In this document: positions 4,801 to 62,406 of the stretch, piece after piece
Numbering within the stretch: the stretch's first letter is position 1
How the letters are laid out: each line of letters starts with the position of its first letter
The notes under the pieces: generated by a model
The model's database searches: none
Seen by the model: the letters and a program-made list of their open reading frames with translations, nothing else
Told to the model about the DNA's origin: nothing
DNA from: a virus
Lineage: Duplodnaviria > Caudoviricetes
Reading direction: 5' to 3' (one strand)
Length of the DNA: 64,000 bases
Virus record (IMG/VR): IMGVR_UViG_3300043442_000931
Coordinates: 5,574 to 69,573 of that record
Program-made: the position numbers and the translations under genes

Positions 4801-6022
4801 TGCGGCGACCCTTGAGGCGAACCTGTACGCTGGGGATACTGGAAAATTGCCGAGAATCTACTTTGATCCCCAACACGGCTGAGTTGGGATATGACAGCTT
4901 TTCATCAATGATCTCTGTGTAGGCTTGCCAAATAATTGAGTTTGAGAGATAAGTTGATGTACTGTCTGCGGTGAGCCTTTCGACTTTGATGTCCCAGGGG
5001 GCACTACCTGTTAGCTCAAATTCATAGGCTCTCTGGAACTGACCGGAAGACTTACCCTCGACTTTGGGTGTGGATTTTGTAGAGTAAGCGCCCCCGTTGG
5101 CAGAGACGCTGATGCGATATTCCACCGCAGTTGCATTGATGTCACCCTTGTCGGGACTGATGCTCTGTAGAGCCGGATGCTGGATAATAACCCGCACCTT
5201 CTCCACATCAGGATCTGTTACCCGTCTTATGACAGGGCCAATGTCCTTGGAGACTTCGACGCCAACGCTGATGGTGTTGTCTGCTTGAACGAAACCCTTT
5301 AATGGGTCTTGCGTATCAGTGCCACTCTTATACTCAATGGTTACGTCTTTGAAATTGTAGGTATTTCCATCAGACCGCTGTATAGGCGTACCATCGAGCA
5401 GAATGTCGCGCTCGGCACTAGTGGGAAACCCTTCAACTTCTCCCTCAGACAACAGGAATACTGTTTTCGCAAACGCAACGGAAAACAGATTGTTCGCCGC
5501 CTCGACGGGTGTGCGGGAAGCACCACCGCCGCCCTTTCCGCCCCCGTCTCCACCAGCCCCTGTAATGGGGCCTGCCAGACCGGCATTATGGACTCGGAAA
5601 CCACCCGCAATAAAGGTGTGCTGCTGCTGGACGGTCAGGTTGTAGACCGTGGTGGGCTCCAAGGTTTCGCGAGACAGGATGGGCCGTAGGTGCCCTCGGT
5701 CATCCACCAGACAGTCATCCGGCCCCAGCGTCCCAATTGCCACAAAGGCATTGAACTGGTTGAGTACCCAGTGGTTGTCGGTGATGTCGAGAGCGCCTCC
5801 ACCCCAGATGTGGTAGCGGCTGACGGGATGGTTTTCGTGGACGTGGACGGCCAGCACCGTGGCATGGTGGAACTGGCCTTGGTCATCAAACGAGACCACC
5901 AGATCGCCGGGCTGGAGAGTGCCTATTGGCACGGACCCAGATGGAGTGAGGACGGGTACATGGCAGGGGAAGCAACCATCACCACCAGCCCCCTGAATCT
6001 CCTGCCCTTCGATATAGTCCAC
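1835..6022 (-). CDS. Tail tip / host specificity protein J with N-terminal Hint domain and FN3-like repeats
   Basis: Lambda J-like motifs (LLSEGEVEG, YPNSAVLG, WTDNPAWIFRD, EPRFRCNVY); last gene of an M-L-K-I-J module. Confidence 0.9.
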   Translation of the reverse strand: MDYIEGQEIQGAGGDGCFPCHVPVLTPSGSVPIGTLQPGDLVVSFDDQGQFHHATVLAVHVHENHPVSRYHIWGGGALDITDNHWVLNQFNAFVAIGTLGPDDCLVDDRGHLRPILSRETLEPTTVYNLTVQQQHTFIAGGFRVHNAGLAGPITGAGGDGGGKGGGGASRTPVEAANNLFSVAFAKTVFLLSEGEVEGFPTSAERDILLDGTPIQRSDGNTYNFKDVTIEYKSGTDTQDPLKGFVQADNTISVGVEVSKDIGPVIRRVTDPDVEKVRVIIQHPALQSISPDKGDINATAVEYRISVSANGGAYSTKSTPKVEGKSSGQFQRAYEFELTGSAPWDIKVERLTADSTSTYLSNSIIWQAYTEIIDEKLSYPNSAVLGIKVDSRQFSSIPSVQVRLKGRRIQVPKNYDPTKRTYDGTWDGTWKTAWTDNPAWIFRDIVVNPIFGVKRYLSTADVDKWKLLEIAKYCDESVSNGKGGTEPRFRCNVYLQNEGSVFEVLNALASCFRGLIYYSQGKLFLSQDKPGTPVQQFTEANVIQETDDNGNITAPPFVYQGSSRTARKSVVIASWDDPDQNYNAVSEYLQDDELLRRYGYNPTDLRLLGVTSRGQALRAAKFALFANRYLTDKVTFKVGAEGLASGIGDIIQIADPVRQGQRLGGRIVSVSDKTITLDATLSLNSNTTYTVTVVVPDGETVTNGDSTTSVRPQLQERTVSSFSTDSSGRTTLTCSAAVSGVAGSIWVLEWTDMQARLYRILGLSEVEPMVFQIEALQYNASSYDYIDKDSVVTVPKDRFLIRDVDAPSNLSAKLDYKNGRTRIYATWTAPQVNGIDDPQIAEYRLEYRVKDSNAWQRIGDTLYTYGDVSLPSYTLGTTYEFRAASRNRLGQQSNWAQVTVDGFDAVADLSSSTYKAKLTHENLSDGRHKLKIDRGTAPVIERIKGYAVWVKPEAGVTIPGDTKPDKDGWYLLSDSVTLTGEYNIEFKALSTYDVRVNFTSNISGETFTKYITDKIERAEIAPPTPTNFTVILNSDNRTKRFSWQLPKSTYTTWKDNIVSDIKSYVLRYINTDLESATDAALLKAWDQAIALDSVSGTRTWFETTLFATSGENTILLRASDQTGWVSDKVVFITVHLVDKLTANVVNTVAWNLDASTNEYINCEVTDVADLRTETGADLLTEDSNVLQHTVTKYLKQVDPAQDAYVYWRLDNDYIKSQLTITTTATATTQHRIAALTGVEVALADESGNELQTEAGDSLNKTDLDYSAIEVSKLAASVFHPYSSGEELTEDIYGVQTLVRSTDGTTPGEISAVSYTLDYPDVLENFNDVSVVAAGTQIPLTKTFHTIKSVQVTIQDIGTEAVSAKVLAKTTTYVTVQVLNAAGTGVAGSVDVTVQGY
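5585..5974 (-). other. Mini-intein / bacterial intein-like (Hint) domain, 130 aa, no endonuclease
   Basis: Starts CFPCHVPVLTP, has block B (TDNHWV), ends VYNLTV...FIAGGFRVHN; the +1 residue is Ala. Confidence 0.85.
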
Positions 6023-33891: not shown

Positions 33892-33947
33892 GACGGCACT
33901 TAGTTGGTTATCCAGCAGCCCCACGTGGAGGGGTCCGTCCTGCTGCC
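33892..33947 (-). ncRNA. Minimal HDV-like ribozyme #1
   Basis: P1 GGCAGC/GCUGCU, P2 GACGG/CCGUC, P3 CCC/GGG, L3 UCCACGU, P1.1 GG, J4/2 CUAA; predicted cleavage 5' of G33947. Confidence 0.85.
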
Positions 33948-34025: not shown

Positions 34026-34055
34026 ATTTTATTTCAGGTAGTTGAATCGTGTCAA
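34026..34055 (-). promoter_or_regulatory. Sigma70-type promoter
   Basis: TTGACA-N18-TAAAAT on the minus strand upstream of DUF932. Confidence 0.6.
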
Positions 34056-34056
34056 C

Positions 34057-34380
34057 CTATTCTGGATAAACTCGGATCCGTCCAGACCAGTTGCCCCCCA
34101 CGCCCAGGCGCGAGGCCAAACCTCCAGACATATCCAGCTCACATGTGCCAGAACAGGTATCCGTGACCGGCACGTTATAGACGCAGCGGTCTTTGCGGCA
34201 AACAGTAACGCGCCGCCCAAACCATTGATCTGAGGCGGCGCTAACAGCGGTATGCCAATAGATTTTGCCGCTGGCGGTTGGTCTCCCGTGAAAATCGGGA
34301 TGATAGACCGTACCGTGTGTGGCCATAGCCGGGGCGGCGCTAGTGGCCAGGATTGCCAAACTAGAGAGTAGTTTCTTCAA
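34057..34380 (-). CDS. RlpA-like double-psi beta-barrel protein with signal peptide
   Basis: TTG start KKLLSSLAILATSAAPAMA; FHGRPTASG, VTDTC...LDMSGG. Confidence 0.75.
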   Translation of the reverse strand: MKKLLSSLAILATSAAPAMATHGTVYHPDFHGRPTASGKIYWHTAVSAASDQWFGRRVTVCRKDRCVYNVPVTDTCSGTCELDMSGGLASRLGVGGNWSGRIRVYPE

Positions 34381-34400: not shown

Positions 34401-34455
34401 GCCTGTGTTGGTTGGTTATCCAGCTCCACCACGGGGAGGTCACAGGCTGGGAGCC
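34401..34455 (-). ncRNA. Minimal HDV-like ribozyme #2
   Basis: P1 GGCUCC/GGAGCU, P2 GCCUGUG/CACAGGC, P3 ACC/GGU, L3 UCCCCGU, J4/2 CCAA. Confidence 0.88.
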
Positions 34456-35327: not shown

Positions 35328-35380
35328 TGATCCAATTAGCAAAACCAGCACCACCGCGTGGAGGTTTGGATCACGGTGCC
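35328..35380 (-). ncRNA. Minimal HDV-like ribozyme #3
   Basis: P1 GGCACC/GGUGCU, P2 UGAUCCAA/UUGGAUCA, L3 UCCACGC, J4/2 GCUAA. Confidence 0.9.
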
Positions 35381-35721: not shown

Positions 35722-35773
35722 GATCCAATCAGCGAAATCAGCACCACCACGCGAAGGTTTGGATCACGGTGCC
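35722..35773 (-). ncRNA. Minimal HDV-like ribozyme #4
   Basis: P2 GAUCCAA/UUGGAUC, L3 UUCGCGU with compensatory P1.1 partner GA, J4/2 GCUGA. Confidence 0.9.
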
Positions 35774-35805: not shown

Positions 35806-36147
35806 TTAAGAAATTGCCACTGCACAGAGAATATCATTTCTGACAGTGTCGAGTTCCTGCGTATGATCCAAGCCCAGTGCTTGGGCAAAGGAGCGAATCT
35901 GGGCTTCGGATGCTGCCGCAACGGGCAGCTCTTCCGCCAACAGCTTGTCAATCTGGTCCAGGGCCAGCTTCAGTTTGATAATCATCGCTTCGGGCTTTCC
36001 AGCCACGAATTCGAGGATCGTCTTAGCTAGCTGCCAAACCCAGTGCATGAGCTGCTGGGTTACGGCTTGGACGCCGAGTACCACTCGCTGGATAACGATT
36101 CGCGCCTTGTGAATCAGAGAACGCAGTGCGCTTTTCAGGTCGGTCAT
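35806..36147 (-). CDS. Hypothetical protein
   Basis: ATG MTDLKS preceded by the A/C-rich leader. Confidence 0.65.
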   Translation of the reverse strand: MTDLKSALRSLIHKARIVIQRVVLGVQAVTQQLMHWVWQLAKTILEFVAGKPEAMIIKLKLALDQIDKLLAEELPVAAASEAQIRSFAQALGLDHTQELDTVRNDILCAVAIS

Positions 36148-36478
36148 TTGTGGTTCCTTTGTGTTGTTTGGTTTGGCCGATATTTGTATGCGCCTCGGAA
36201 CCGGGCGCAGCATCCAAAGCCGCAGCGACTTTCAGTCGCAAGCTGTCCGTGGACATACGGCTGTAGTTGCGGATTCTCAAACGTTTGGCGAGAACCAACA
36301 GGTCACGCCGGTTATCTGGAATTGCACTAGGGGCGGGTGGTTCGGGGTGGGTTGGGGGTGGAGCTTCCGCCAAACGTTTGGCAGCAAACAGCTCCACCAG
36401 CCAATCCACAAGCGCCCAAACCAGCGCAGCAAACAGCACCACCGGATAGGCCGGATGGTTACGGTCAATCGTGTTCAT
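36023..36478 (-). CDS. Hypothetical protein with Rho-N-like helical motif (C-terminus overlaps the next gene)
   Basis: RRDLLVLAKRLRIRNYSRMSTDSL; N-terminal hydrophobic segment. Confidence 0.55.
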   Translation of the reverse strand: MNTIDRNHPAYPVVLFAALVWALVDWLVELFAAKRLAEAPPPTHPEPPAPSAIPDNRRDLLVLAKRLRIRNYSRMSTDSLRLKVAAALDAAPGSEAHTNIGQTKQHKGTTNDRPEKRTAFSDSQGANRYPASGTRRPSRNPAAHALGLAAS

Positions 36479-36535
36479 TTGTTTTTCCTAATGCTGGTAG
36501 CGCCACCGTGTAGAGAGTGGGGCGCTAGTTGTTGA

Positions 36536-36544
36536 ATTATACCA
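36536..36544 (-). promoter_or_regulatory. Extended -10 promoter
   Basis: TGgTATAAT on the minus strand just 3' of twister #1. Confidence 0.5.
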
Positions 36545-36558
36545 CGATAAGCGTGGTT

Positions 36559-36610
36559 GCTCCCTCTGCGTTTGAACCCCGGCTTGGGACGGGCGTAGGC
36601 CGCATTAAGC
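36559..36610 (-). ncRNA. Twister ribozyme (type P1) #1
   Basis: GCU UAA UGCG GCC UAC GCCCG UCCCAAGC CGGG GUUCAAA CGCA GAGGG AGC; P1, P2, P4, T1 (CCC/GGG) and T2 (GC/GC) intact; U^A cleavage at 36607/36606. Confidence 0.9.
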
Positions 36611-36633
36611 GTGGGGCCGAAGCCCCACTATGG

Positions 36634-37191
36634 TTAGCAGAAGATGTGGCTCTGATCGCCGTATCGGATCTCGTAGAAGTCGCCGGTTTCCAGCTCCTCC
36701 CACGCACCTTTGTAGTCGATGTTGTGCCGGATCAGATCCGGCAGCGAGTCCACATCCACGCTCTCGTGGATGAATTCATAGGCGAATTCCCAGGCATAGT
36801 CATAGGTGCCTCGGTACGCCTCGGCGAACTCCTCGACGCACCCCCACCGCATGTGGTGGTAGGTACAAGAGTTCCACTTCAGATACAGCTCCCATTCCAG
36901 CTTACGGGCTTCGATTTCTTCGAAGTCCTCGGCAATCTGGCCCAGGTCAGCCAGGGTGGCGAATTCGCCGAGCTGGCCGCCGCATCGTTCGGAGTCGTGG
37001 ATGGCCCACTCCTCGGCGATGTCGCCGGTCTTGCGGGCGTAGGGGGATTGGGCCAGCATGGCCTGGATGGCCTGCTCATGGTCCGTAACCCCATCCAGCT
37101 CCAGCCAGCACCCGTGTAGGATGCCAGCGTTGTAGTCGCTCAAGCTGGCAATGTATACCGCTGGAGCATTTTGAGTTAGAGTGATGGTCAT
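36634..37191 (-). CDS. ardA: Antirestriction protein ArdA
   Basis: VYIASLSDYNAGILHGCWL, EEWAIHDSE, acidic C-terminus with YIDY-like NIDYKG. Confidence 0.9.
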   Translation of the reverse strand: MTITLTQNAPAVYIASLSDYNAGILHGCWLELDGVTDHEQAIQAMLAQSPYARKTGDIAEEWAIHDSERCGGQLGEFATLADLGQIAEDFEEIEARKLEWELYLKWNSCTYHHMRWGCVEEFAEAYRGTYDYAWEFAYEFIHESVDVDSLPDLIRHNIDYKGAWEELETGDFYEIRYGDQSHIFC

Positions 37192-37223
37192 GGAATTTGT
37201 GATTCCGTTGTTTGGTTTACGAC

Positions 37224-37258
37224 CCCTGGGACAGAGAAGTCGCCCAGGGGTTTTTTTT
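37224..37258 (+). terminator. Strong hairpin with T8 run (terminator on + strand; 5' leader hairpin of ardA on - strand)
   Basis: CCCCTGGG-N14-CCCAGGGG-TTTTTTTT. Confidence 0.55.
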
Positions 37259-37293
37259 GCGTGAAACGTGAAATTATCCAATTTCGGAACTGG

Positions 37294-37494
37294 TTAGCGC
37301 CACAGCTTCTCCTCACAGATTCGTGTGGGCTGGCCAACCAAAAGCTGATAGCGTTTGGCGGAAGCCAGACTGTCGAAGTATCGTTCTGCCCACCAGTGGT
37401 GGGTATTGGAGTCATAACGCTCCACCACATATAGCGTCGTCCACTTCGGCACTACCGAGTCGAAGACGATATCGCGTAAGTCGAACGTACTCAT
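37294..37494 (-). CDS. Hypothetical protein
   Basis: 66 aa, start overlaps the upstream stop. Confidence 0.55.
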   Translation of the reverse strand: MSTFDLRDIVFDSVVPKWTTLYVVERYDSNTHHWWAERYFDSLASAKRYQLLVGQPTRICEEKLWR

Positions 37495-37736
37495 TCACAC
37501 GACCCATCAGCTAGAAAGGTGGTGCAACCGTTGGGCAGTCGCCCAATCAGGTGGCCGTTCCACCGCAGCATTGCGGGGCTGTGGGTGGGAGCTATGTCGA
37601 ACCGTAGCTCCCGCAGAATCTCTGTGGGGTGTAGCCCGTAGTCACGACACCACCTATTGAGTAGGTGTCGCTGGGGCTCACTCAGACGCCGCAGGGTTGG
37701 TCCCTGCTCATATGCCTCGTAGGAAGAGAGGATCAT
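37491..37736 (-). CDS. Hypothetical protein
   Basis: 81 aa following ribozyme #5 and its leader. Confidence 0.6.
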   Translation of the reverse strand: MILSSYEAYEQGPTLRRLSEPQRHLLNRWCRDYGLHPTEILRELRFDIAPTHSPAMLRWNGHLIGRLPNGCTTFLADGSCE

Positions 37737-37761
37737 GTTTTGATTCCGATGTTTGGTTAGT

Positions 37762-37814
37762 CACTCGTTGGTTGGTTATCCAGCACCACCGCGAGGAGGT
37801 CGAGTGTTGGTGCC
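37762..37814 (-). ncRNA. Minimal HDV-like ribozyme #5
   Basis: P2 CACUCG/CGAGUG, L3 UCCUCGC (same as the HDV genomic loop), J4/2 CCAA. Confidence 0.9.
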
Positions 37815-37837
37815 ACGGGGCTCGGAGCCCCAGTCCG

Positions 37838-38488
37838 CTAGTCGCGGAGCAGTACCGGCATCAGATGACAGTACAGTCGAACGCCATCCTCCAGCTTGGC
37901 GCTGAAGTGCAGCATCGAACGGTTGGTCTTGCCCCATTGCAGGGACACAACCGTTCTCGGACACAGAGCCACTACCACCCCCAGGAAGTCCTGGGCGAGG
38001 CGGGCATCGAAGTTCAGCGACTCCACCCCCTGGGACTCGGTTCCCTCAATCAGGGAATCAAGGTCGGGGAATGTATACCCCGCATGGGCGGTGGAAATCT
38101 TCTTGTAGTCGAGGTGCATATTCGCACCCTTTTTCCGATTCAGAACATGCGCGATGTCCGAATCGAGAATATCGGCTCGGTGAGCCGAGCCCAGCCGACC
38201 CTTGGCGCGAAACTCGGCCACATTCAGGATGAGTTCGTCATCCCGCATATAGCCGCATGTTATAGCCTTGTCGGCTGTTATGTCGTAAATCTCGGCAGGA
38301 ACTGCCGGGATCTCGATTCGGAACATCCGCCAGCCATCCGTGGCATCCAGCAACAGCTTCGTGCCGTTCTGGACTTTGCGAATTCGTACAACGTTGCTGA
38401 TGGGCAGCTTCGTTGCGTCTTGGCTGGAGAACTGGACTGCTGCCCACAGAATACGGGGCGGCAGGATTGCGAGAAGTTCGCCGTTCAT
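37838..38488 (-). CDS. DNA sliding clamp (beta subunit)-like protein
   Basis: LDATDGWRMFRI resembles ATDGHRL; YTFPDLDSLI, NFDARL, and C-terminal HLMPV resemble DnaN repeats. Confidence 0.5.
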   Translation of the reverse strand: MNGELLAILPPRILWAAVQFSSQDATKLPISNVVRIRKVQNGTKLLLDATDGWRMFRIEIPAVPAEIYDITADKAITCGYMRDDELILNVAEFRAKGRLGSAHRADILDSDIAHVLNRKKGANMHLDYKKISTAHAGYTFPDLDSLIEGTESQGVESLNFDARLAQDFLGVVVALCPRTVVSLQWGKTNRSMLHFSAKLEDGVRLYCHLMPVLLRD

Positions 38489-38522
38489 GGTTGGTTCCGT
38501 TGTGTTTCAGTTGTTTGGTTGG

Positions 38523-38578
38523 TAGCACCACTCAGTCGAAGTCAACACCACCACGTGAAGGTGGGTGCTATTGGTGTC
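38523..38578 (-). ncRNA. Minimal HDV-like ribozyme #6
   Basis: P1 GACACC/GGUGUU, P2 UAGCACC/GGUGCUA, L3 UUCACGU (same as CPEB3) with P1.1 GA, J4/2 CUGA. Confidence 0.9.
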
Positions 38579-38599
38579 GTGGGGCCGAAGCCCCTAGGG

Positions 38600-39028
38600 T
38601 TAGGCGACCATCTGATTCAGGCGACGATATTCGTCCTGGGTGTATTCGTATAGTTCTGCGATACCCACCGGACAGAATGCCTCGTGGATTGCCGGAATCA
38701 GACTGACGGACATTGAGGCGTATAAGTCCCCATTTATACAGTCTGCATTAGGCAACTCAAAAACGTCGTGAGCATGCCCGGTTTGACACAAACCACAAGG
38801 CAGATGCAGCTCAACCCGCAGCTTCATAGCTGCAAGGCTTGTTATTGCTTTTGGGGTGTAGGGAGACTCATACATAACTACATTGACTTGCATAAACATG
38901 TACCGAACCAGTAACAGTTCAGTAGTTCCATTCAAACGCTCCGGGGTCTCCCAAAGTTTTTGAATGAATAGTGGGTTAACGCTAGCCAATGCAAGCTGCT
39001 TCATGTCATACAGATTTTTGAAGTTCAT
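38600..39028 (-). CDS. Hypothetical protein
   Basis: ATG MNFKN after ribozyme #7 leader. Confidence 0.6.
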   Translation of the reverse strand: MNFKNLYDMKQLALASVNPLFIQKLWETPERLNGTTELLLVRYMFMQVNVVMYESPYTPKAITSLAAMKLRVELHLPCGLCQTGHAHDVFELPNADCINGDLYASMSVSLIPAIHEAFCPVGIAELYEYTQDEYRRLNQMVA

Positions 39029-39051
39029 TGTGATTTCGTTGTTTGGTTGGT

Positions 39052-39103
39052 TGCTCGTTGGTTGGTTATCCAGCACCACCACGGGGAGGTGAGCATTGGT
39101 GCC
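39052..39103 (-). ncRNA. Minimal HDV-like ribozyme #7
   Basis: P2 UGCUC/GAGCA, L3 UCCCCGU, J4/2 CCAAC. Confidence 0.8.
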
Positions 39104-39127
39104 ACGGAGCCCACAGGCTCCGCATCC

Positions 39128-39235
39128 TTACAGGGTCATCAGTTGGTAAAGGCAGTAGAGAATGATTATCAGTCCCACTATCAGAATGAATAGTGCGCCT
39201 TTTGGGTTAAGCGCAACGAACAACAAGCTGCTCAT
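39128..39235 (-). CDS. Small membrane peptide (35 aa)
   Basis: MSSLLFVALNPKGALFILIVGLIIILYCLYQLMTL; GGAGA upstream. Confidence 0.5.
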   Translation of the reverse strand: MSSLLFVALNPKGALFILIVGLIIILYCLYQLMTL

Positions 39236-39353
39236 GGCTTTTCTCCTGGGTATTGGTTGATTGAAACACGGGCAGTTTCGGACCCTGGTCGATTAGTTCC
39301 AAGGAACGATAGCGACGGCGCAGATGCGCCTCGCGGTTGATTGTGTGAAACAT
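39207..39353 (-). CDS. Small hypothetical protein (48 aa)
   Basis: MFHTINREAHLRRRYRSLELIDQ... directly after ribozyme #8 leader. Confidence 0.5.
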   Translation of the reverse strand: MFHTINREAHLRRRYRSLELIDQGPKLPVFQSTNTQEKSHEQLVVRCA

Positions 39354-39374
39354 GTTGTGATCCGTTGTTTGGTT

Positions 39375-39427
39375 GATCAGTTGGTTGGTTATCCAGCACC
39401 ACCACGGGGAGGTCTGATCGGGGTGCC
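39375..39427 (-). ncRNA. Minimal HDV-like ribozyme #8
   Basis: P2 GAUCAG/CUGAUC, L3 UCCCCGU, J4/2 CCAA. Confidence 0.9.
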
Positions 39428-39449
39428 ACGGGGCTCTAGGCCCCTGCTG

Positions 39450-39896
39450 CTAGGGCAGCACTTGAACGGGAAGAACGTAGCTACGGGCATTGCAGGTTTC
39501 GCCGTAAAGATCGAGGATGCGATCTCGCTCAACATCAGCGGCTGCCTGTGCGGATTCTTCCGTTGTGTGGATAGTCAACGGATTGAAGTCGGTGCCACCC
39601 TCATATACGTCGTACCAAGACACGTAACCCTGAAACAGGGTTACAACTGCGGGGGCTGCAAAAACCTCGTCTTCGGTGATAGCGATTTTGTCCCGATCAG
39701 GGGGGACAATCAGCTCCTCCAAAGAGGAGATTCTGGTTTTTGGCACGTCAGCACCTTCGCAGAACTCCAGGGGGTCGTACCCAGCCTGGAAAGCACCCTC
39801 CAGGGATGCTTGTGCGGCGCTCAAGTCACCATCTACTTCCATGTAGATGGTGTAGTTGTTGCTGTAGACAACTACAGCCTTGTAGTAGCGAGTCAT
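39450..39896 (-). CDS. Hypothetical acidic protein
   Basis: 148 aa after ribozyme #9 leader. Confidence 0.65.
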   Translation of the reverse strand: MTRYYKAVVVYSNNYTIYMEVDGDLSAAQASLEGAFQAGYDPLEFCEGADVPKTRISSLEELIVPPDRDKIAITEDEVFAAPAVVTLFQGYVSWYDVYEGGTDFNPLTIHTTEESAQAAADVERDRILDLYGETCNARSYVLPVQVLP

Positions 39897-39919
39897 GGTT
39901 TATTCCGTTGTTGTTTGAT

Positions 39920-39972
39920 TGCTCGTTGGTTGGTTATCCAGCACCACCACGTGGAGGTTGAGCATTGGTGCC
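39920..39972 (-). ncRNA. Minimal HDV-like ribozyme #9
   Basis: P2 UGCUC/GAGCA, L3 UCCACGU, J4/2 CCAA. Confidence 0.85.
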
Positions 39973-40015
39973 ATAGCGGACCAACCGCGAGTGCGGCTGG
40001 TCCAGTTCAAACGCT

Positions 40016-40429
40016 TTAGACGATTTGGATGTCGTAGTACAACTGACAGCCCCGCTCCGCGAGGAAATTCAGTATCTGCTGCTGGAGTACATCCGCAGGA
40101 TTACGATCCTGGGATGCGAGTTCCGCACAGGTGACGCTCCGAGGAGCGTCGGGATTCTCAGCCACATGCAGCTCCAGGGCCTTCAGGGGGACACCGCGCT
40201 TGGCTTCGACGGCTGTCATATAGGCAGCGCAGAGGTTGTACAGCTCCACATCGCGTTGCGGCGTTACGGGCGTGACCTCGTCCGTATGGACATCCAGACG
40301 GGCCACGACCCGAATGGTTTCAATCTCGACTTGGGGTTGAGGTTGATAGTTGAAGTGACGCTTACTGACTGCGGTATAGGTGCCGAAGGCAGTTTGCTGG
40401 GTCTTCTTGTTAGAGAAAAGTCCGAACAT
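40016..40429 (-). CDS. Hypothetical protein
   Basis: ATG MFGLF after ribozyme #10 leader. Confidence 0.6.
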   Translation of the reverse strand: MFGLFSNKKTQQTAFGTYTAVSKRHFNYQPQPQVEIETIRVVARLDVHTDEVTPVTPQRDVELYNLCAAYMTAVEAKRGVPLKALELHVAENPDAPRSVTCAELASQDRNPADVLQQQILNFLAERGCQLYYDIQIV

Positions 40430-40457
40430 TTTTTGTTGATTCCGTTGTTGTTTGGTT

Positions 40458-40511
40458 GCATCACTTGGTTGGTTATCCAACACCACCACGGGGAGGTGGA
40501 TGCGTGGTGTC
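40458..40511 (-). ncRNA. Minimal HDV-like ribozyme #10
   Basis: P1 GACACC/GGUGUU, P2 GCAUC/GAUGC, L3 UCCCCGU. Confidence 0.85.
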
Positions 40512-40532
40512 ATTGGGGCCGAAGCCCCAAAA

Positions 40533-40817
40533 TTAAACCCAATCATCAGGTAGTTCTGCTTCGCAATCTATAGCGAACAGATCACCATCCTGATACAGGT
40601 AGTATTCGACTGAAGAATTATCGAACTTAAGACGTGCTTTAGCTAGGACTTCGTCCCAGCAATCCCAGTAATTTTCTGCGTCTGGTCCTGCAAGAAGCAC
40701 ATCTAAGTCTTCTTGCATAATACCTAACAAAGCGGAGGTATTACCGTATTTTTCAGCAAATCTTTTGGGGACATAGACGCCAAAACAGCCGTCTACTATA
40801 AGCATTACTGAGTCCAT
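40533..40817 (-). CDS. Hypothetical acidic protein
   Basis: 94 aa; G.YVP..FA and YYLYQDGDLFA motifs familiar from phage early proteins. Confidence 0.7.
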   Translation of the reverse strand: MDSVMLIVDGCFGVYVPKRFAEKYGNTSALLGIMQEDLDVLLAGPDAENYWDCWDEVLAKARLKFDNSSVEYYLYQDGDLFAIDCEAELPDDWV

Positions 40818-40841
40818 TTGCTATTCCTTTGTTGTTTGGTT

Positions 40842-40895
40842 GCATCACTTGGTTGGTTATCCAACACCACCACGGGGAGGTGGATGCGTGGTGTC
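40842..40895 (-). ncRNA. Minimal HDV-like ribozyme #11 (identical to #10)
   Basis: Same sequence as 40458..40511. Confidence 0.85.
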
Positions 40896-40917
40896 ATCGG
40901 GGCCGAAGCCCCAGCGT

Positions 40918-41331
40918 TCACAGGACAGCATCGAACCACGAGTGCAGGTCGCGCACTAATGTGCGAACTTGCCAGTAGTATTCGTCCTGATAGTTTTTGT
41001 CTAAAGTGCCGCTCTTGAACTCCTGCTGGAGGTAATCCAGATGGAGCTTTAAGTAAAAGAAGGCGTTATCGACTGCTTGAATTTTCATCATGTACTGAGT
41101 CGCTGGTAAAACCAGATTCAGTTCAGGCGCTACGTTTGTAAATTCGTAGTGCCAGCAATCCAGATACACCATATGGTATTTAATGATTTGCACCGCAACC
41201 CCTAGTTGTTGAGGGGTCATCGGACCATACACATATAGCTGCTCTACGTCATTGAGTAACCTGTGTATAGCCTTGATTTTGGTGTTAAGGATTTGCAGAT
41301 TCGCTTCAGCTTGCGAGATTTCGGTAGTCAT
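40918..41331 (-). CDS. Hypothetical protein
   Basis: ATG MTTEI after ribozyme #12 leader. Confidence 0.6.
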   Translation of the reverse strand: MTTEISQAEANLQILNTKIKAIHRLLNDVEQLYVYGPMTPQQLGVAVQIIKYHMVYLDCWHYEFTNVAPELNLVLPATQYMMKIQAVDNAFFYLKLHLDYLQQEFKSGTLDKNYQDEYYWQVRTLVRDLHSWFDAVL

Positions 41332-41356
41332 TGATTTGTGATTCCGTTGTTTGGTT

Positions 41357-41410
41357 AAGTCAATTAGTTGGTTATCCAGCACCACCACGAGGAGGTTTGA
41401 CTTTGGTGCC
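41357..41410 (-). ncRNA. Minimal HDV-like ribozyme #12
   Basis: P2 AAGUCAA/UUGACUU, L3 UCCUCGU, J4/2 CUAA. Confidence 0.9.
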
Positions 41411-41432
41411 ATCGGGGCCGAAGCCCCAGAGC

Positions 41433-41672
41433 TTACAGAACGTCCGCCAGCCAGTTTTCGTAGGCTTCGCAGGCGTTTGTAATGATCTCGATTTCTTCGT
41501 CCAGTTCCGCCTGAGTGAGACGGCCAGCGAGGTAATCCTTTTCCAGCTTGTTCAGCTTGGCCATCTGACGGTCGAACCCGTCTTGGATGGCTCGGATTTG
41601 GTCTTCCCGCGTGATGCGGGAAGCTTGTTGGCTGCGCTCGATGCGACGGACCAGGGTATTGAAGTTGGACAT
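41433..41672 (-). CDS. Hypothetical coiled-coil protein
   Basis: ATG MSNFNT after ribozyme #13 leader. Confidence 0.65.
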   Translation of the reverse strand: MSNFNTLVRRIERSQQASRITREDQIRAIQDGFDRQMAKLNKLEKDYLAGRLTQAELDEEIEIITNACEAYENWLADVL

Positions 41673-41698
41673 TGTTTGTTCCGTTGTTGTTTGGTTGT

Positions 41699-41751
41699 TA
41701 CTTGTTAGTTGGTTATCCAGCACCGGCGCGGGGAGCCCAAGTAGTGGTGCC
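41699..41751 (-). ncRNA. Minimal HDV-like ribozyme #13
   Basis: P3 GGC/GCC (covaried), P2 UACUUG/CAAGUA, L3 UCCCCGC, J4/2 CUAA. Confidence 0.9.
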
Positions 41752-41772
41752 ACGGGGCTTGCGCCCCAAACG

Positions 41773-42036
41773 TTATGCAAGTGCCTGACAGGCTGAAACC
41801 GCCTCATCCAGCGAGTCGAACCCGCACATGACGCGGCAATCATCCGCCAGACTGAGCGTCCATCCCTGGTCAGTTTCGTACTGACACAGGAAGCCATCAG
41901 CCCGGCTGACGCTGAAACCAATTGGTTTTTCGTCATCGCCTAGACACGAGATAACACGGAAACGACCGTCGAACTTGATTCCGGGGAAACAGGTTTCGAC
42001 GGTATCAGCGAACTGGTCAAAGCTCAGGAAAGTCAT
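41773..42036 (-). CDS. Hypothetical protein (first gene of the leftward early operon)
   Basis: 87 aa after twister #2 and the A/C-rich leader. Confidence 0.65.
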   Translation of the reverse strand: MTFLSFDQFADTVETCFPGIKFDGRFRVISCLGDDEKPIGFSVSRADGFLCQYETDQGWTLSLADDCRVMCGFDSLDEAVSACQALA

Positions 42037-42060
42037 CGGTTGTTCCGTTGTTGTTTGGTT

Positions 42061-42130
42061 GTGCCCCTCTGCGTTTACCGGACTTGGGACCGGCCAACCA
42101 ATTCAGAAACTGGTTGGGTCGCATTAGCAC
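42061..42130 (-). ncRNA. Twister ribozyme (type P1, with P3 stem) #2
   Basis: GUGC UAA UGCG ACC CAACCA-N10-UGGUUG GCCGG UCCCAAGU CCGG UAAA CGCA GAGGG GCAC; T2 covaried to AC/GU; cleavage 42126/42125. Confidence 0.92.
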
Positions 42131-42416: not shown

Positions 42417-42445
42417 ATTATAGCGCAACTCAACTTATAGTGCAA
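42417..42445 (-). promoter_or_regulatory. Strong sigma70-type leftward early promoter
   Basis: TTGCAC-N17-TATAAT. Confidence 0.75.
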
Positions 42446-42530
42446 CAAATAATTTGGAGAATTCCGGGTTATTTTCTTGGAAAAGCCCAGATTTTGACGC
42501 TATAACGGTACTTATAGTAAGAGAAACATC

Positions 42531-42764
42531 ATGTCTGAGCACAATCCTGGGCTTCGCTTGCAGTTCCACCGCAAACTCCAGGGGCTGGAGCAGCGCGATC
42601 TGGCTGAGTGCCTGGGCGTATCCTCCCAGGCGATCTCGAACTGGGAGGGGAATCGGGCGACACCCCGCCTCAAGCCCCACCAGTACGCGACACTGCTGCG
42701 GATGCTGAAGCTGGAGCCTGACCAGCTAGCGGAGATTTATGCGACCAGCTCCACCTCGATGTGA
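42531..42764 (+). CDS. XRE/Cro-like HTH regulator
   Basis: LEQRDLAECLGVSSQAISNWEGNRATP. Confidence 0.88.
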   Translation: MSEHNPGLRLQFHRKLQGLEQRDLAECLGVSSQAISNWEGNRATPRLKPHQYATLLRMLKLEPDQLAEIYATSSTSM

Positions 42765-46835: not shown

Positions 46836-49166
46836 ATGCTTCACCAGACTATAGCAGAGTTCATTTCAATCCTGCCTGAAGAATGGTCATATCTGGTCAT
46901 ACCCAAGAAAGGCACGGTATTGATAGGCCGGGATGGGAAGCGCCACACCTATTGCGGGAAGCGGGCATGGGGAGGCACTACGAACTCCTATTGCAAGAGC
47001 GAATTGCTGGCAGAGCTGGCCCGCCTGGACTACGTGGAGGCTGTCGGCTTCAAGCCCGGCCCCCAGTCGGATGGGGTGGTGGTACTGGACATCGATTTGG
47101 CGGGTGCCCGCGACAAGCTCATCGAAACCTATGGGGAGTTGCCCGAAACATTCGAGGTACGCTCCACCAAAGGTGGGGGCTGCGGCAAGCTGCTATACCG
47201 CATCGAGGACCACTGGTTCAACAAGATCAAGGGGCGGCAGTTACGCAACGACCTGGGGTACGAAATCCTGTGGGGTCGGGCCTCGAACGCTGTGATCGTG
47301 GGTGAGTACCCCGGCAAACCCGAGCGCAACATCCCCGCAGGCACCTATGAGTGGTTGGGCACCCCCGACCAGATCGCCCCGGCTCCCCAGTGGTTGATCG
47401 ATGAGATGCGCCGGGAGTTCCAGAAAGACAATCGTTTGACGGATGACGGTAGCCGCTTCCTGCCCAAGGACTGGGACACCAGCTATCGGACGGAAGCGCA
47501 GCTCGTCGAGGTGATCCGGCTGGCGTTGAGCGTGATCCCAAACGGTGGTCAGCACTCTGAAGACCAGTGGTCCCGCATCGGCTCGGCCATCTATAGCGTG
47601 TTGCCGAATGAGCGGGGGCTAGCCCTGTGGGAGGAGTGGTCCCGCCAGGACCGCGACTATCAGGAGGAGTGGGAGAACGGCAACCCCTGTGCGGATCGCT
47701 GGGCCAAGGGCTTCGTTGGCACCGTGAAGCTGGGGTCGCTGGTGCGGATGGCAGCGAGTGAACTGGCGGGGTCCGACAACGACGAGCAGGCGATCCGCTA
47801 TTGGATCAGGAAGCACTTCGGCTCCCACGCTGAAGCCAACCAGCGGGTCGAGGTGCTGACCCCTGAGGACTTCCAACTGCCAAACGATTTGGCGGAACGC
47901 TACCTGAAGGCGACCCAGAACAAGGTCGGGTACGAGCTGCTGCTGACCGTCAACAACTTCTGTCGGTCCTACAAGATCCGGCACGACAAGCTGGAAAAGC
48001 TGGTGCGGACGTGGCGCACCGAGCAACGCCAGCAGAGCAACCCCTATCGGGAGTGCGCCACTCTGCGCGAAATGCTGGAGATATACAACCGGCGGGTGCC
48101 GGGCGAAGACTTCCTGATTCCTGGGCTGCTACCGATGGGTGCGGTGGTGATGCTGTATGCGGACGGGGGTTCCGGCAAGACGCTGCTGGCCAACTATCTG
48201 GCGGCACTGGTAGGCAATGCCATCGATCAGGCGCAGTCCTGGGGCAAGCTCCACATTCAGGGTGGTAGGGTGCTGTACCTGCAATCCGACCAGGGGGCCG
48301 AACGCGCTCTGTTTCAGGTGAGCGGTCTGCTTCAGGACCACCCCCTGATGGCGGGTAGCGACAACGTTCGCATGAAGTTCGGCTGGGACGCCAGCCGCCT
48401 GCTGGAGCTGATCGATTGGATCGAGGAGTGGGAGCCGAAGCTGTTGGTGGTGGACTCGCTGTTCCACATCAACCGCACGTCGATGGCCGAGGAGAAGGAC
48501 GCAGCCTATGCGCATGTGCTGGATGACCTGCGCGAACTGGCTGAGACGTATGGGCTGGCGGTGTTGGTGATCCACCACGTCAATCATGGGGGCGCGATGC
48601 GCGGCAGCAAGAAGCTGCGCGACAACTGCGACGAGGTGTGGGCGCTCAAGCGCCTGGAGGGGGCCTCGATGGTGGACCGTCGCCGCCATCTGCATGTGGA
48701 TAAGACGCGAACCGGGGTGCCGCGCACCCTGGCGCTGACCCTACAGGAAGACCTGACGTGGGTCATGGAAGGCGAGGTGATTGACCCCGACGACGCTAAC
48801 AAGCCAGTACCACTCACCGACCGGCTGCTGACGTACTACGAAGGCCGCAAAACCAGTGACTGGGTCAGCCTGAGCAAGCTACGAACGAACATTATGTTCG
48901 AAAGCGAAGATAGGCGTCGCATGAACGAGGCTCTGATGCGATTAGCCAACCGGGGCCATCTGGAATGCCAGGACACCTCAGAGGGCAGGGCTTACCGTCA
49001 TGTGCGCTGGAAGGGCCAGGAAGCCGTCGCAGCACCCTCCAGCAGCTTCATGCCAGGGGACGCGCCACCCGCCCCGTCAGCGGGCGCAGAGCCTGCACAG
49101 CGCGAGTCTCTGAGTGACTGGTTGCAGCGTCATGTCCGGTTCCCGCAGAGCCCGGACAGCCCCTAG
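46836..49166 (+). CDS. Bifunctional primase-polymerase / PriCT-2 / AAA_25 (RepA-type) helicase
   Basis: VVVLDID and YPG prim-pol motifs; WSRIGSAI...WEEWS (PriCT-2); YADGGSGKT, LLVVDSL, VIHH, RGS helicase motifs. Confidence 0.88.
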   Translation: MLHQTIAEFISILPEEWSYLVIPKKGTVLIGRDGKRHTYCGKRAWGGTTNSYCKSELLAELARLDYVEAVGFKPGPQSDGVVVLDIDLAGARDKLIETYGELPETFEVRSTKGGGCGKLLYRIEDHWFNKIKGRQLRNDLGYEILWGRASNAVIVGEYPGKPERNIPAGTYEWLGTPDQIAPAPQWLIDEMRREFQKDNRLTDDGSRFLPKDWDTSYRTEAQLVEVIRLALSVIPNGGQHSEDQWSRIGSAIYSVLPNERGLALWEEWSRQDRDYQEEWENGNPCADRWAKGFVGTVKLGSLVRMAASELAGSDNDEQAIRYWIRKHFGSHAEANQRVEVLTPEDFQLPNDLAERYLKATQNKVGYELLLTVNNFCRSYKIRHDKLEKLVRTWRTEQRQQSNPYRECATLREMLEIYNRRVPGEDFLIPGLLPMGAVVMLYADGGSGKTLLANYLAALVGNAIDQAQSWGKLHIQGGRVLYLQSDQGAERALFQVSGLLQDHPLMAGSDNVRMKFGWDASRLLELIDWIEEWEPKLLVVDSLFHINRTSMAEEKDAAYAHVLDDLRELAETYGLAVLVIHHVNHGGAMRGSKKLRDNCDEVWALKRLEGASMVDRRRHLHVDKTRTGVPRTLALTLQEDLTWVMEGEVIDPDDANKPVPLTDRLLTYYEGRKTSDWVSLSKLRTNIMFESEDRRRMNEALMRLANRGHLECQDTSEGRAYRHVRWKGQEAVAAPSSSFMPGDAPPAPSAGAEPAQRESLSDWLQRHVRFPQSPDSP

Positions 49167-60616: not shown

Positions 60617-61933
60617 GGAAAAACTCTCGGTAGTTTGGAAACCCCTGCTTTCAAGCGGGGGAGGAAAAACGCCTCGGCGGCTTTAGCCGCTGTCACACCT
60701 GGAGCGGTAGAATGTGAGGAATGGAACGCGCCTTCCGCTATCGCTTCTACCCGACACCCGAGCAGGACGTTCTCCTGCGGCGGACGATGGGTTGCGTGCG
60801 CCTCGTCTACAACAAGGCGTTGGCGTTGCGCACGGAAGCTTGGTACGAGCGGCAGGAGCGGGTGGACTACAAACAGACCTCCGCTGTTCTGACGGCGTGG
60901 AAGAAGGAAGAAGACCTGTCCTTCCTCAACGAGGTCAGTTGCGTTCCGCTCCAACAGACGTTGCGGCACCTCCAGAAAGCGTTCAGCAACTTCTGGGCCA
61001 AGCGGACCGGTTACCCAACCTTCAAGAAGAAGCGGAATGGGGGCTCGGCTGAGTTCACCAAGTCGGCTTTTTCCTGGCGAGATGGGCAACTGTTCCTGGC
61101 CAAGAGCAAGGAGCCGTTGGCGATCCGCTGGTCCCGCCAGTTGCCCAAGGGTGCAGAACCCTCGACGGTGACGGTGAAGCTGGACCCGGCAGGCCGCTGG
61201 TTTGTGTCCCTGCTGGTGGATGACCCGACGATTGAGCCGCTGCCGCCCACGGATAAGACCGTTGGGCTGGATGCGGGCATCACGAGTCTGATCACCACCA
61301 GTGACGGCGAGAAGGTCGTTAACCCTCGCCACCTGGGCCGCAGACTGAAGCGACTGCGACTGTTGCAGCAGTCCCTCAGCCGTAAGGTGAAGGGCAGCAA
61401 CAACCGCTATCGGGCTCGCCTGAAGGTCGCCCGATTGCAAGCCCGGATTGCGGACTCGCGCCGTGACCATCTGCACAAGCTGACCACCCGGCTGGTTCAG
61501 GAGAACCAACTGATCGCCGTGGAGACTCTGGCTGTGCGGAACATGGTGAAGAACCGCTCTCTGGCCCGCAGCATCTCCGACTGTGGATGGGGCGAACTCG
61601 TCCGCCAGTTGGAGTACAAGTGCGACTGGTATGGGCGAACCCTGGTCAAGATCGACCAGTGGTTTCCCAGCAGTAAGCGATGTGGCGACTGCGGGCACAT
61701 CGTCGAGCGTCTGCCGTTGAGTGTTCGGGAGTGGGCCTGTCCCCAGTGCGGGGCCAAGCACGACCGGGACATCAATGCAGCGCAGAACATTCTTGCCGCC
61801 GGGCTGGCGGTGAAAGCGTCTGGAGCGGGTGTAAGACCTGATAGGCATAGCCTTGAGGGCAGCTGCAATGAAGGACGAAACTCTTGGAAGTGATTCTGAG
61901 AATCCCCCGTGCTTCAGCCGGGGGAGAAGTCAA
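60617..61933 (+). mobile_element. IS200/IS605-family element (tnpB only, IS1341-like)
   Basis: Left-end hairpin GAAA-CCCCTGCTTTCAAGCGGGGG; right-end GAAT-CCCCCG...CGGGGG-AGAAG-TCAA; inserted 3' of TCAT; removing it restores the parA SD-ATG. Confidence 0.88.
60721..61893 (+). CDS. tnpB: RNA-guided endonuclease TnpB
   Basis: RYRFYPT HTH; RuvC D (VGLDAGI), E (IAVETL), D (HDRDINAA); zinc ribbon CGDCG...CPQCG. Confidence 0.95.
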   Translation: MERAFRYRFYPTPEQDVLLRRTMGCVRLVYNKALALRTEAWYERQERVDYKQTSAVLTAWKKEEDLSFLNEVSCVPLQQTLRHLQKAFSNFWAKRTGYPTFKKKRNGGSAEFTKSAFSWRDGQLFLAKSKEPLAIRWSRQLPKGAEPSTVTVKLDPAGRWFVSLLVDDPTIEPLPPTDKTVGLDAGITSLITTSDGEKVVNPRHLGRRLKRLRLLQQSLSRKVKGSNNRYRARLKVARLQARIADSRRDHLHKLTTRLVQENQLIAVETLAVRNMVKNRSLARSISDCGWGELVRQLEYKCDWYGRTLVKIDQWFPSSKRCGDCGHIVERLPLSVREWACPQCGAKHDRDINAAQNILAAGLAVKASGAGVRPDRHSLEGSCNEGRNSWK

Positions 61934-62007: not shown

Positions 62008-62406
62008 TTAGAAGTTTGCCCGAATGGACTCTGCCAGCACGTCGGCTTGAGGCCCGGCTGTCGCCAGAGTGGCACTATCGCCCCGACACCAGACAACTGC
62101 CCCCGTTGCACCATACGTTGCCCGAACTGACTTGCCGTTGTCTTGGATCTGGGTAGCGTTTAACGAGTAAAACGCTTGCTTGGCCCGTTGCAGACAAGGC
62201 AGTACACCATAGGGTGTCGGCAGGTTCCACAACACGATTGGGGGTGCGGAACCCATCAGTTCGTTGGGGCTCAAACCGTTTGCCATCAGGTTGGGTTGTG
62301 CCGCGAAGTCAGTGGGTGGAGCTTCAAACGTTTTGGGCACAGGCTTCCCTGACAGCATCGTCGCCAGAACCATCGACAGAAAATCCATCCGACCAAACCA
62401 AACCAC
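62008..62406 (-). CDS. Hypothetical protein
   Basis: 132 aa ORF; start uncertain. Confidence 0.5.
   Translation of the reverse strand: MVWFGRMDFLSMVLATMLSGKPVPKTFEAPPTDFAAQPNLMANGLSPNELMGSAPPIVLWNLPTPYGVLPCLQRAKQAFYSLNATQIQDNGKSVRATYGATGAVVWCRGDSATLATAGPQADVLAESIRANF

Follow-up and report, generated by a model that had tools for sequence, protein, structure and literature searches.

Twister and hepatitis delta virus-like ribozymes in equivalent slots of a putative early operon of a tailed phage

The ribozyme-bearing locus

The locus described here lies in a stretch of 64,000 nucleotides (nt), hereafter the window, which covers positions 5,574 to 69,573 of a single virus record (IMGVR_UViG_3300043442_000931; 69.6 kb, judged 99% complete). 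The terminase and portal genes downstream of the ribozyme array identify the source as a tailed phage. Within 8.3 kb of the window, 15 ribozymes were predicted, of which 13 resemble the hepatitis delta virus (HDV) ribozyme and two are twisters; all of them are on the minus strand, in the same sense as the local genes. We infer that both classes are set in an early, anti-defence-type operon of approximately 9 kb, which includes small genes without a known family, ardA, two ParB-like genes, and the genes of a DPBB protein and a DUF932 protein. The first gene of the operon is gene 1 (41773–42036, minus strand, ATG at 42036), the product of which has 87 amino acids (aa) and belongs to no family. 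The ardA gene (36634–37191, minus strand) encodes an antirestriction protein of 185 aa (PF07275, E 9e-21).

Two type-P1 twister ribozymes

An earlier note on this DNA had placed type-P1 twisters at two sites, and the matches to RF03160 were found exactly there, in intergenic sequence on the minus strand. Twister 1 (42061–42130), which contains P3 and lies in the 5′ untranslated region of the operon, scored 55.8 bits (E 8e-10 for the whole window and 2e-10 in a 16-kb scan), and twister 2 (36558–36611), which is without P3 and follows ardA, scored 44.2 bits (E 1.8e-6 and 4.4e-7, respectively), both calls resting on an Rfam scan by E-value and not by gathering score. Every upper-case consensus position of the twister core was kept, the sole departure being GCC>ACC in twister 1. 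That change is compensated by AAGC>AAGU in the T2 pair, which is AC/GU in this copy and GC/GC in the other. The P4 helix also covaries, with CCGG/CCGG in one copy and CCCG/CGGG in the other; the covariation that the earlier note had described for T2 and P4 was thus confirmed.

The T1 pseudoknot (P4 loop CCC with GGG of GAGGG), the T2 pseudoknot, and the conserved core nucleotides are present in both twisters. The middle pair of T1 varies across phages, being C-G here (CCC/GGG), A-U in the loci L022, L024, and L029 (CAC/GUG), and U-A in L017 (CUC/GAG). The T1 and T2 pairings were read by eye; a MAFFT alignment of six twisters misaligned the P3-bearing copies. The minimum free energy folds agreed with the covariance model alignment: twister 1 folded into P1-P2-P3-P4 and twister 2 into P1-P2-P4, the ends lying in P1 in both. 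By sequence and covariation, both matches are genuine type-P1 twisters. We take the cleavage sites to be between U42126 and A42125 in twister 1 and between U36607 and A36606 in twister 2.

The HDV-like array

The HDV-like class was assigned with our own minimal descriptor and covariance model. The descriptor required a 6-bp P1 starting with G-U, a 3-bp P3, an L3 of the form UYCNCGN, a P1.1 that pairs with L3, the motif CNRA, and then a P2 of at least 5 bp. It detected 13 P4-less units of 52–57 nt, all on the minus strand between 33892 and 41751, and had no matches in 50 genome shuffles or in 1 Mb of unrelated viral sequence (118 loci). The covariance model, built from ten of the units, recovered 12 of the 13 in the window, together with relatives in other phage contigs.

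Listed in the order of transcription, the units start with 41699–41751 (P3 GGC/GCC), 41357–41410 (77.7 bits), and 40842–40895 (P1 GACACC/GGUGUU), the last of which has a near-identical twin at 40458–40511. They are followed by 39920–39972, 39375–39427, 39052–39103, 38523–38578, and 37762–37814. After ardA and twister 2, the array continues with 35722–35773, 35328–35380, 34401–34455 (P1 GGCUCC/GGAGCU), and finally 33892–33947 (P1 GGCAGC/GCUGCU, P3 CCC/GGG), located 5′ of the DUF932 gene. A variant linker is found in the units at 38523–38578, 35722–35773, and 35328–35380, with P1.1 being UC/GA in the first two; the unit at 38523–38578 is the one that the covariance model missed at E<0.01, all the others having been found by both methods.

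The statistics of pairing and covariation were computed on 35 distinct HDV-like sequences and 500 shuffles. Of all cells, 93.9% pair, compared with 72.4% in the shuffles, and 15 of the 18 pairs are changed on both sides; none of the 500 shuffles reached these values. Pairing is 100% in P1, P3, and P1.1 and 83.6% in P2, where the rows with P4 are truncated, and it fell to 25–55% in slid controls. Compensatory changes occur in P1, P2, P3, and P1.1. The G1-U wobble at the predicted cleavage site is found in 33 of 33 distinct sequences and in all units of the window, and the J4/2 cytosine, as CNRA 5′ of P2′, in 13 of 13 units. In some relatives, a P4 hairpin is inserted exactly between P1.1 and J4/2, as the HDV-like topology predicts. 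The window yielded no match to an Rfam HDV-type model at E<=10; RF02682 was matched by a P4-bearing relative in L022 (E 0.0024). The HDV-like array of the earlier note thus corresponds to 13 minus-strand folds that are supported by covariation.

Organization of the slots

The typical slot consists of a stop codon, a GC hairpin, 2–4 nt, the predicted cleavage site with the HDV-like unit, the AACCAAACAAC...GGAA leader, and ATG. The sequence GGGGCTTCGGCCCC occurs in six copies, compared with 0.05 expected, all on the minus strand and one of them at 36626–36613. Between the ardA stop codon and twister 2 lies a GGGGCUUCGGCCCC hairpin without a U tract (36613–36626, minus strand; −11.4 kcal/mol), one of six exact copies, and the predicted cut of twister 2 is 6 nt past it. 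With at most one mismatch, AACCAAACAAC occurs in 20 copies, compared with 1.1 expected, one of which (42060–42050) is directly 3′ of twister 1. This copy belongs to the A/C-rich leader AACCAAACAACAACGGAACAACCG (42037–42060, minus strand), which connects twister 1 with the ATG at 42036 and is the same leader that follows most of the HDV-like units. Thus, one twister does stand after ardA behind the shared hairpin and the other before the first gene and the shared leader, as the earlier note had claimed, and the twisters and the HDV-like units occupy equivalent slots. In the type-P1 permutation, the twister cut falls close to the 5′ end, as it does in HDV-like ribozymes. With the cut predicted at the 5′ edge of the ribozyme in both classes, either would leave ends of the same kinds.

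In addition, an extended −10-like sequence, TGGTATAAT, lies just 3′ of twister 2 (36535–36543, minus strand), inside a hairpin, and may be an internal promoter or a chance occurrence.

Distribution in other phages and strain variants

The pairing of twister and HDV-like ribozymes recurs in other phages. Three other phage records, G001, G002, and G003, which are the whole records of L022, L024, and L029, carry type-P1 twisters and HDV-like units on one strand. In G001, a twister at 1752 precedes HDV-like units at 2314, 3084, and 3324; in G002, a twister at 62220 lies between HDV-like units at 61704 and 63388; and in G003, a twister at 48502 is followed by HDV-like units at 48001 and 47148. Among approximately 19 HDV-like loci fetched by the HDV-like core pattern, five (L017, L022, L024, L029, and L031) have a same-strand twister within approximately 1.2 kb, whereas the control gave one unvalidated match to the twister regular expression in 118 loci. 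L022 and L024 were obtained from the same sample, and L017, L029, and L031 are near-copies of each other, so the recurrence represents two or three lineages at most. In L029, the twister and the HDV-like unit flank a noncoding RNA and not genes, bracketing approximately 440 nt of noncoding sequence (minus strand, ~1411–1913).

Structured RNAs were also observed near ribozymes in the other loci. P4-bearing HDV-like units are located just 5′ of a ROOL RNA (L032:4845–5605), and a RAGATH-4 RNA (L022:671–798) and a manA RNA (L003:7516–7685) lie beside ribozyme arrays. In one of the other ArdA contexts scanned, a type-II hammerhead upstream of the ardA homologue (L275:1242–1311) scored 45.8 bits, above the gathering score, which matches the link between ardA and hammerheads described in 2011. 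The closest relative of ArdA (51% identity, L036) is associated with plain hairpins and no ribozyme, and no ribozyme match was found with the sole relative of the DUF932 protein (L009, 31% identity). A search of viral contigs with the leader pattern gave chance matches only and served as a negative control, and the pattern of the ribozyme–leader junction gave a single low-complexity chance match in metagenome contigs.

DNA contigs from other metagenomes cover the operon region at 90–99% identity. Twister 1 is identical in the strain variant L267, whose gene 1 is 74% identical, a combination that mosaic recombination could explain as well as selection could. No orthologous slot with a different ribozyme class was found, the homologues of gene 1 and gene 2 being only strain variants with the same layout. 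Thus, in the comparison of orthologous slots that the earlier note had proposed, the same twister was kept and no class swap was seen; its statement that a twister replaces an HDV-like unit holds for the equivalence of positions and not as a swap at an orthologous slot. A contig joint at 41675>42040 (run X3), which would put a twister directly before gene 2, was not counted (33 letters, depth 2.8).

Other contigs of strain variants join exactly between units: the joint 35361>35755 deletes the ParB_N gene, and the joint 40444>40829 deletes the gene at 40533–40817. One strain variant diverges exactly at G1 of unit 39427 (window 39428). Since variant contigs lose one gene between neighbouring ribozyme units, the ribozyme repeats behave as cassette boundaries in these alignments. 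The same joints and breakpoint could be explained if the repeated units were mainly DNA-level recombination boundaries of gene cassettes, with the RNA folds being secondary. We consider this very unlikely, because the covariation is strand-specific and includes the invariant G-U pair, because a DNA site would not be expected to conserve a catalytic C or to show two unrelated ribozyme folds in the same slots, and because recombination between 85-bp direct repeats requires no selection.

A tentative extension, rather unlikely in our judgement, is that the ribozyme, leader, gene, and 3′ hairpin together form a self-sufficient expression cassette that is added, deleted, or exchanged between phages by recombination at ribozyme sequences. 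If so, self-cleavage would make newcomer genes expression-competent whatever their neighbours, the arrangement would be a rough RNA-level counterpart of integron cassettes or of the promoter–stem-loop cassettes of T4, and the cassettes bearing twisters and HDV-like units would be of different origins.

Transcription and predicted processing of the operon

Upstream of the operon lies a divergent gene with a helix-turn-helix (HTH) domain (42531–42764, plus strand), and between the two the strain alignment revealed a promoter-like site, TTGCAC-17 nt-TATAAT (42417–42445, minus strand), which is a consensus match only and was absent from the output of the scan for promoter-like sites. The HTH gene and this site suggest that the operon is probably transcribed from a repressor-controlled early promoter near 42445–42417. 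The predicted leader from the site to twister 1 is approximately 285 nt long. Near the site, ACTATAAGT is repeated at 42460–42520 and may be the operator. The palindrome CAAACGTTTG, present in 8 copies (10371, 34893, 36278, 36371, 42139, 50374, 55884, and 63426) compared with 0.07 expected, has one copy 9 nt 5′ of twister 1.

Inside the array, promoter-like and terminator-like sites show no excess over the shuffles and are in fact fewer, and a U tract is missing from the GGGGCUUCGGCCCC hairpins, which fits one long transcript. With 15 sense-strand ribozymes, co-directional genes, and one predicted transcription unit, the locus agrees with a ribozyme-punctuated phage operon of the type of Perreault et al. 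(2011). A near-consensus promoter-like sequence, TTGACA-18-TAAAAT (34026–34055, minus strand), is located approximately 80 nt 5′ of the last HDV-like unit, which is itself followed by the DUF932 gene. Conjugative leading-region single-stranded DNA promoters were also considered and were ruled out by the terminase and portal genes of a tailed phage and by the strand-specific ribozyme folds.

We consider it probable that the early transcript is cut into gene-sized mRNAs with uniform ends and that either ribozyme class can serve for this. The interpretation of the earlier note, that the two classes are used interchangeably and that cleavage itself is selected, is supported as the best reading of the sequence evidence. 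The long RNA would cut itself during transcription into approximately 16 pieces, with twister 1 removing the leader of ~285 nt. Each upstream piece would end with a GC-rich hairpin, 2–6 nt, and a 2′,3′-cyclic phosphate, and each downstream piece would start with a 5′-OH and the folded ribozyme, followed in most slots by the A/C-rich, G-poor leader before the start codon. The products would be the same, so either class could fill a slot. A phage-encoded RtcB or RNA ligase, sought in view of a possible circular RNA, was not found.

A ribozyme directly follows a promoter-like site, with no upstream gene to separate, at 42130 (twister 1) and at 33947 (HDV-like unit). These two cases suggest that selection acts not only on the separation of cistrons but also on a defined 5′ end insulated from the upstream context.

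A regulatory role of the cuts was considered as well. In that case the classes would be non-equivalent, and the twisters would be placed at the operon entry and at the ardA boundary for their differing kinetics or ion dependence, in order to time or down-regulate expression. It is consistent with this that a twister is the most upstream ribozyme in the present record (G000), G001, and G003, and that twister 2 is followed by a leader of its own, with two hairpins and the extended −10-like TGGTATAAT. However, the twister of G002 has an HDV-like unit on either side, the hairpin and leader modules that the classes have in common point to the same use of both, and no ligand-binding or switch element is visible; we therefore regard a regulatory role as unlikely.

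Several observations weigh against the processing of the transcript by two interchangeable classes. Both twisters score below the RF03160 gathering cut-off of 67.2 bits, and the default Rfam scan at gathering thresholds listed nothing in the window; the related phage twisters, with 43–57 bits, are likewise below this cut-off. In twister 2, P1 is short and P3 is absent, and the stability of the fold does not exceed that of shuffled sequences (z −0.24). One or both matches might accordingly be decayed or chance look-alikes that no longer cleave. Such an explanation appears extremely unlikely in view of the very low E-values, the core positions, which are all kept or compensated, the correct strand, slot, and flank modules, and the identity of twister 1 in the variant with the diverged gene 1.

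In addition, each twister has only one flank module in common with the HDV-like slots. Twister 1 has the canonical leader on its 3′ side, with no hairpin or gene 5′ of it; twister 2 has the shared hairpin on its 5′ side, and on its 3′ side AACCA and then a different leader of 80 nt with two hairpins, which precedes an open reading frame (ORF) of 151 aa (36023–36478, minus strand). Two slots, one at 36173 and the other before ardA, where a plain hairpin is combined with the shared leader (37207–37258, minus strand), carry the leader without a known ribozyme, indicating that not every gene requires a cut. Finally, an HDV-like unit was found in none of 112 phage loci picked by the twister pattern; the pairing is thus not general, and the association is one-sided.

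Other features of the region

On the sense strand, A8 lies 5′ of the hairpin at 37207–37258, and the plus strand reads as a hairpin plus T8, that is, as an intrinsic terminator facing the operon; the length of this A/T run differs between strains. The ORFs at 36023–36478 and 35806–36147 (both on the minus strand) overlap by approximately 125 nt, and the canonical leader of the second (36173–36163) lies inside the first, which makes one gene call or start doubtful. The DPBB (RlpA-like) gene (34057–34380, minus strand) probably starts with TTG at 34380 and encodes a signal-peptide-like N-terminus; its slot is without the AACCAAAC leader.

Comparison with known systems

Clustered hammerheads that flank single genes or short gene blocks, ardA being singled out among them, were described in prophages, together with the proposal that long transcripts are processed into gene-length mRNAs; cleavage of these hammerheads was demonstrated in vitro as well as in E. 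coli (Perreault et al., 2011; PMC3088659). The operon studied here is similar in that several ribozymes of self-cleaving type flank phage genes, including ardA, with cleavage being predicted. It differs from those prophages, which have two or three hammerheads, in having 13 HDV-like units and two twisters in 8.3 kb and no hammerhead, with every unit in a fixed module of hairpin, ribozyme, and leader.

Twister, hammerhead, and later ribozyme classes share gene neighbourhoods (Roth 2014 and Weinberg 2015, as summarised in PMC6765202), and the argument that the exact motif is unimportant has already been made for twister and hammerhead (PMC6765202). In line with these neighbourhoods, a RAGATH-4 RNA adjoins the related mixed array of L022. 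In contrast, HDV-like ribozymes are apparently not part of the set as it appears in the openly readable papers, and, relative to that summary, equivalence is indicated here by identical flanking modules within one operon and not only by shared neighbour genes.

The theta ribozymes of Caudoviricetes are minimal HDV-like ribozymes, 58% of which are tRNA-adjacent and explained, with “unknown biological functions” for the others; that article makes no mention of twister, operon, or array (Kienbeck et al., 2024; PMC10879173). Like them, the units of the present array are short, P4-poor, and located in a tailed-phage genome, and the same core (GGUGYUGGAUAACCAAC) was found inside phage tRNA arrays (L010, L012, and L019), which ties our HDV-like family to the theta ribozymes. 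Unlike the tRNA-adjacent members, the units described here punctuate protein-coding genes.

In synthetic insulators of the RiboJ type, a self-cleaving ribozyme before the coding sequence strips the upstream RNA and fixes the 5′ end. These parts are engineered, whereas the present operon would be a natural, operon-wide counterpart with two ribozyme classes. In the openly readable literature, we found no description of a pairing of twister and HDV-like ribozymes or of a comparably ribozyme-dense operon. The concept itself is not new: a known arrangement and a known argument are extended to a new pair of classes at an unusual density.

Conclusions

Much about the role of self-cleaving ribozymes in bacteria and phages has yet to be clarified (PMC6765202). 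The operon is an unusually clean natural test bed for this question, with two unrelated classes in one transcript and with shared flank modules, so that reporters with swapped classes or dead ribozymes could separate the importance of the cut from that of the fold. With this finding, HDV-like ribozymes join the set of classes found in such phage contexts, and a candidate function, the punctuation of mRNA, is offered for the many theta ribozymes that are not located beside tRNAs.

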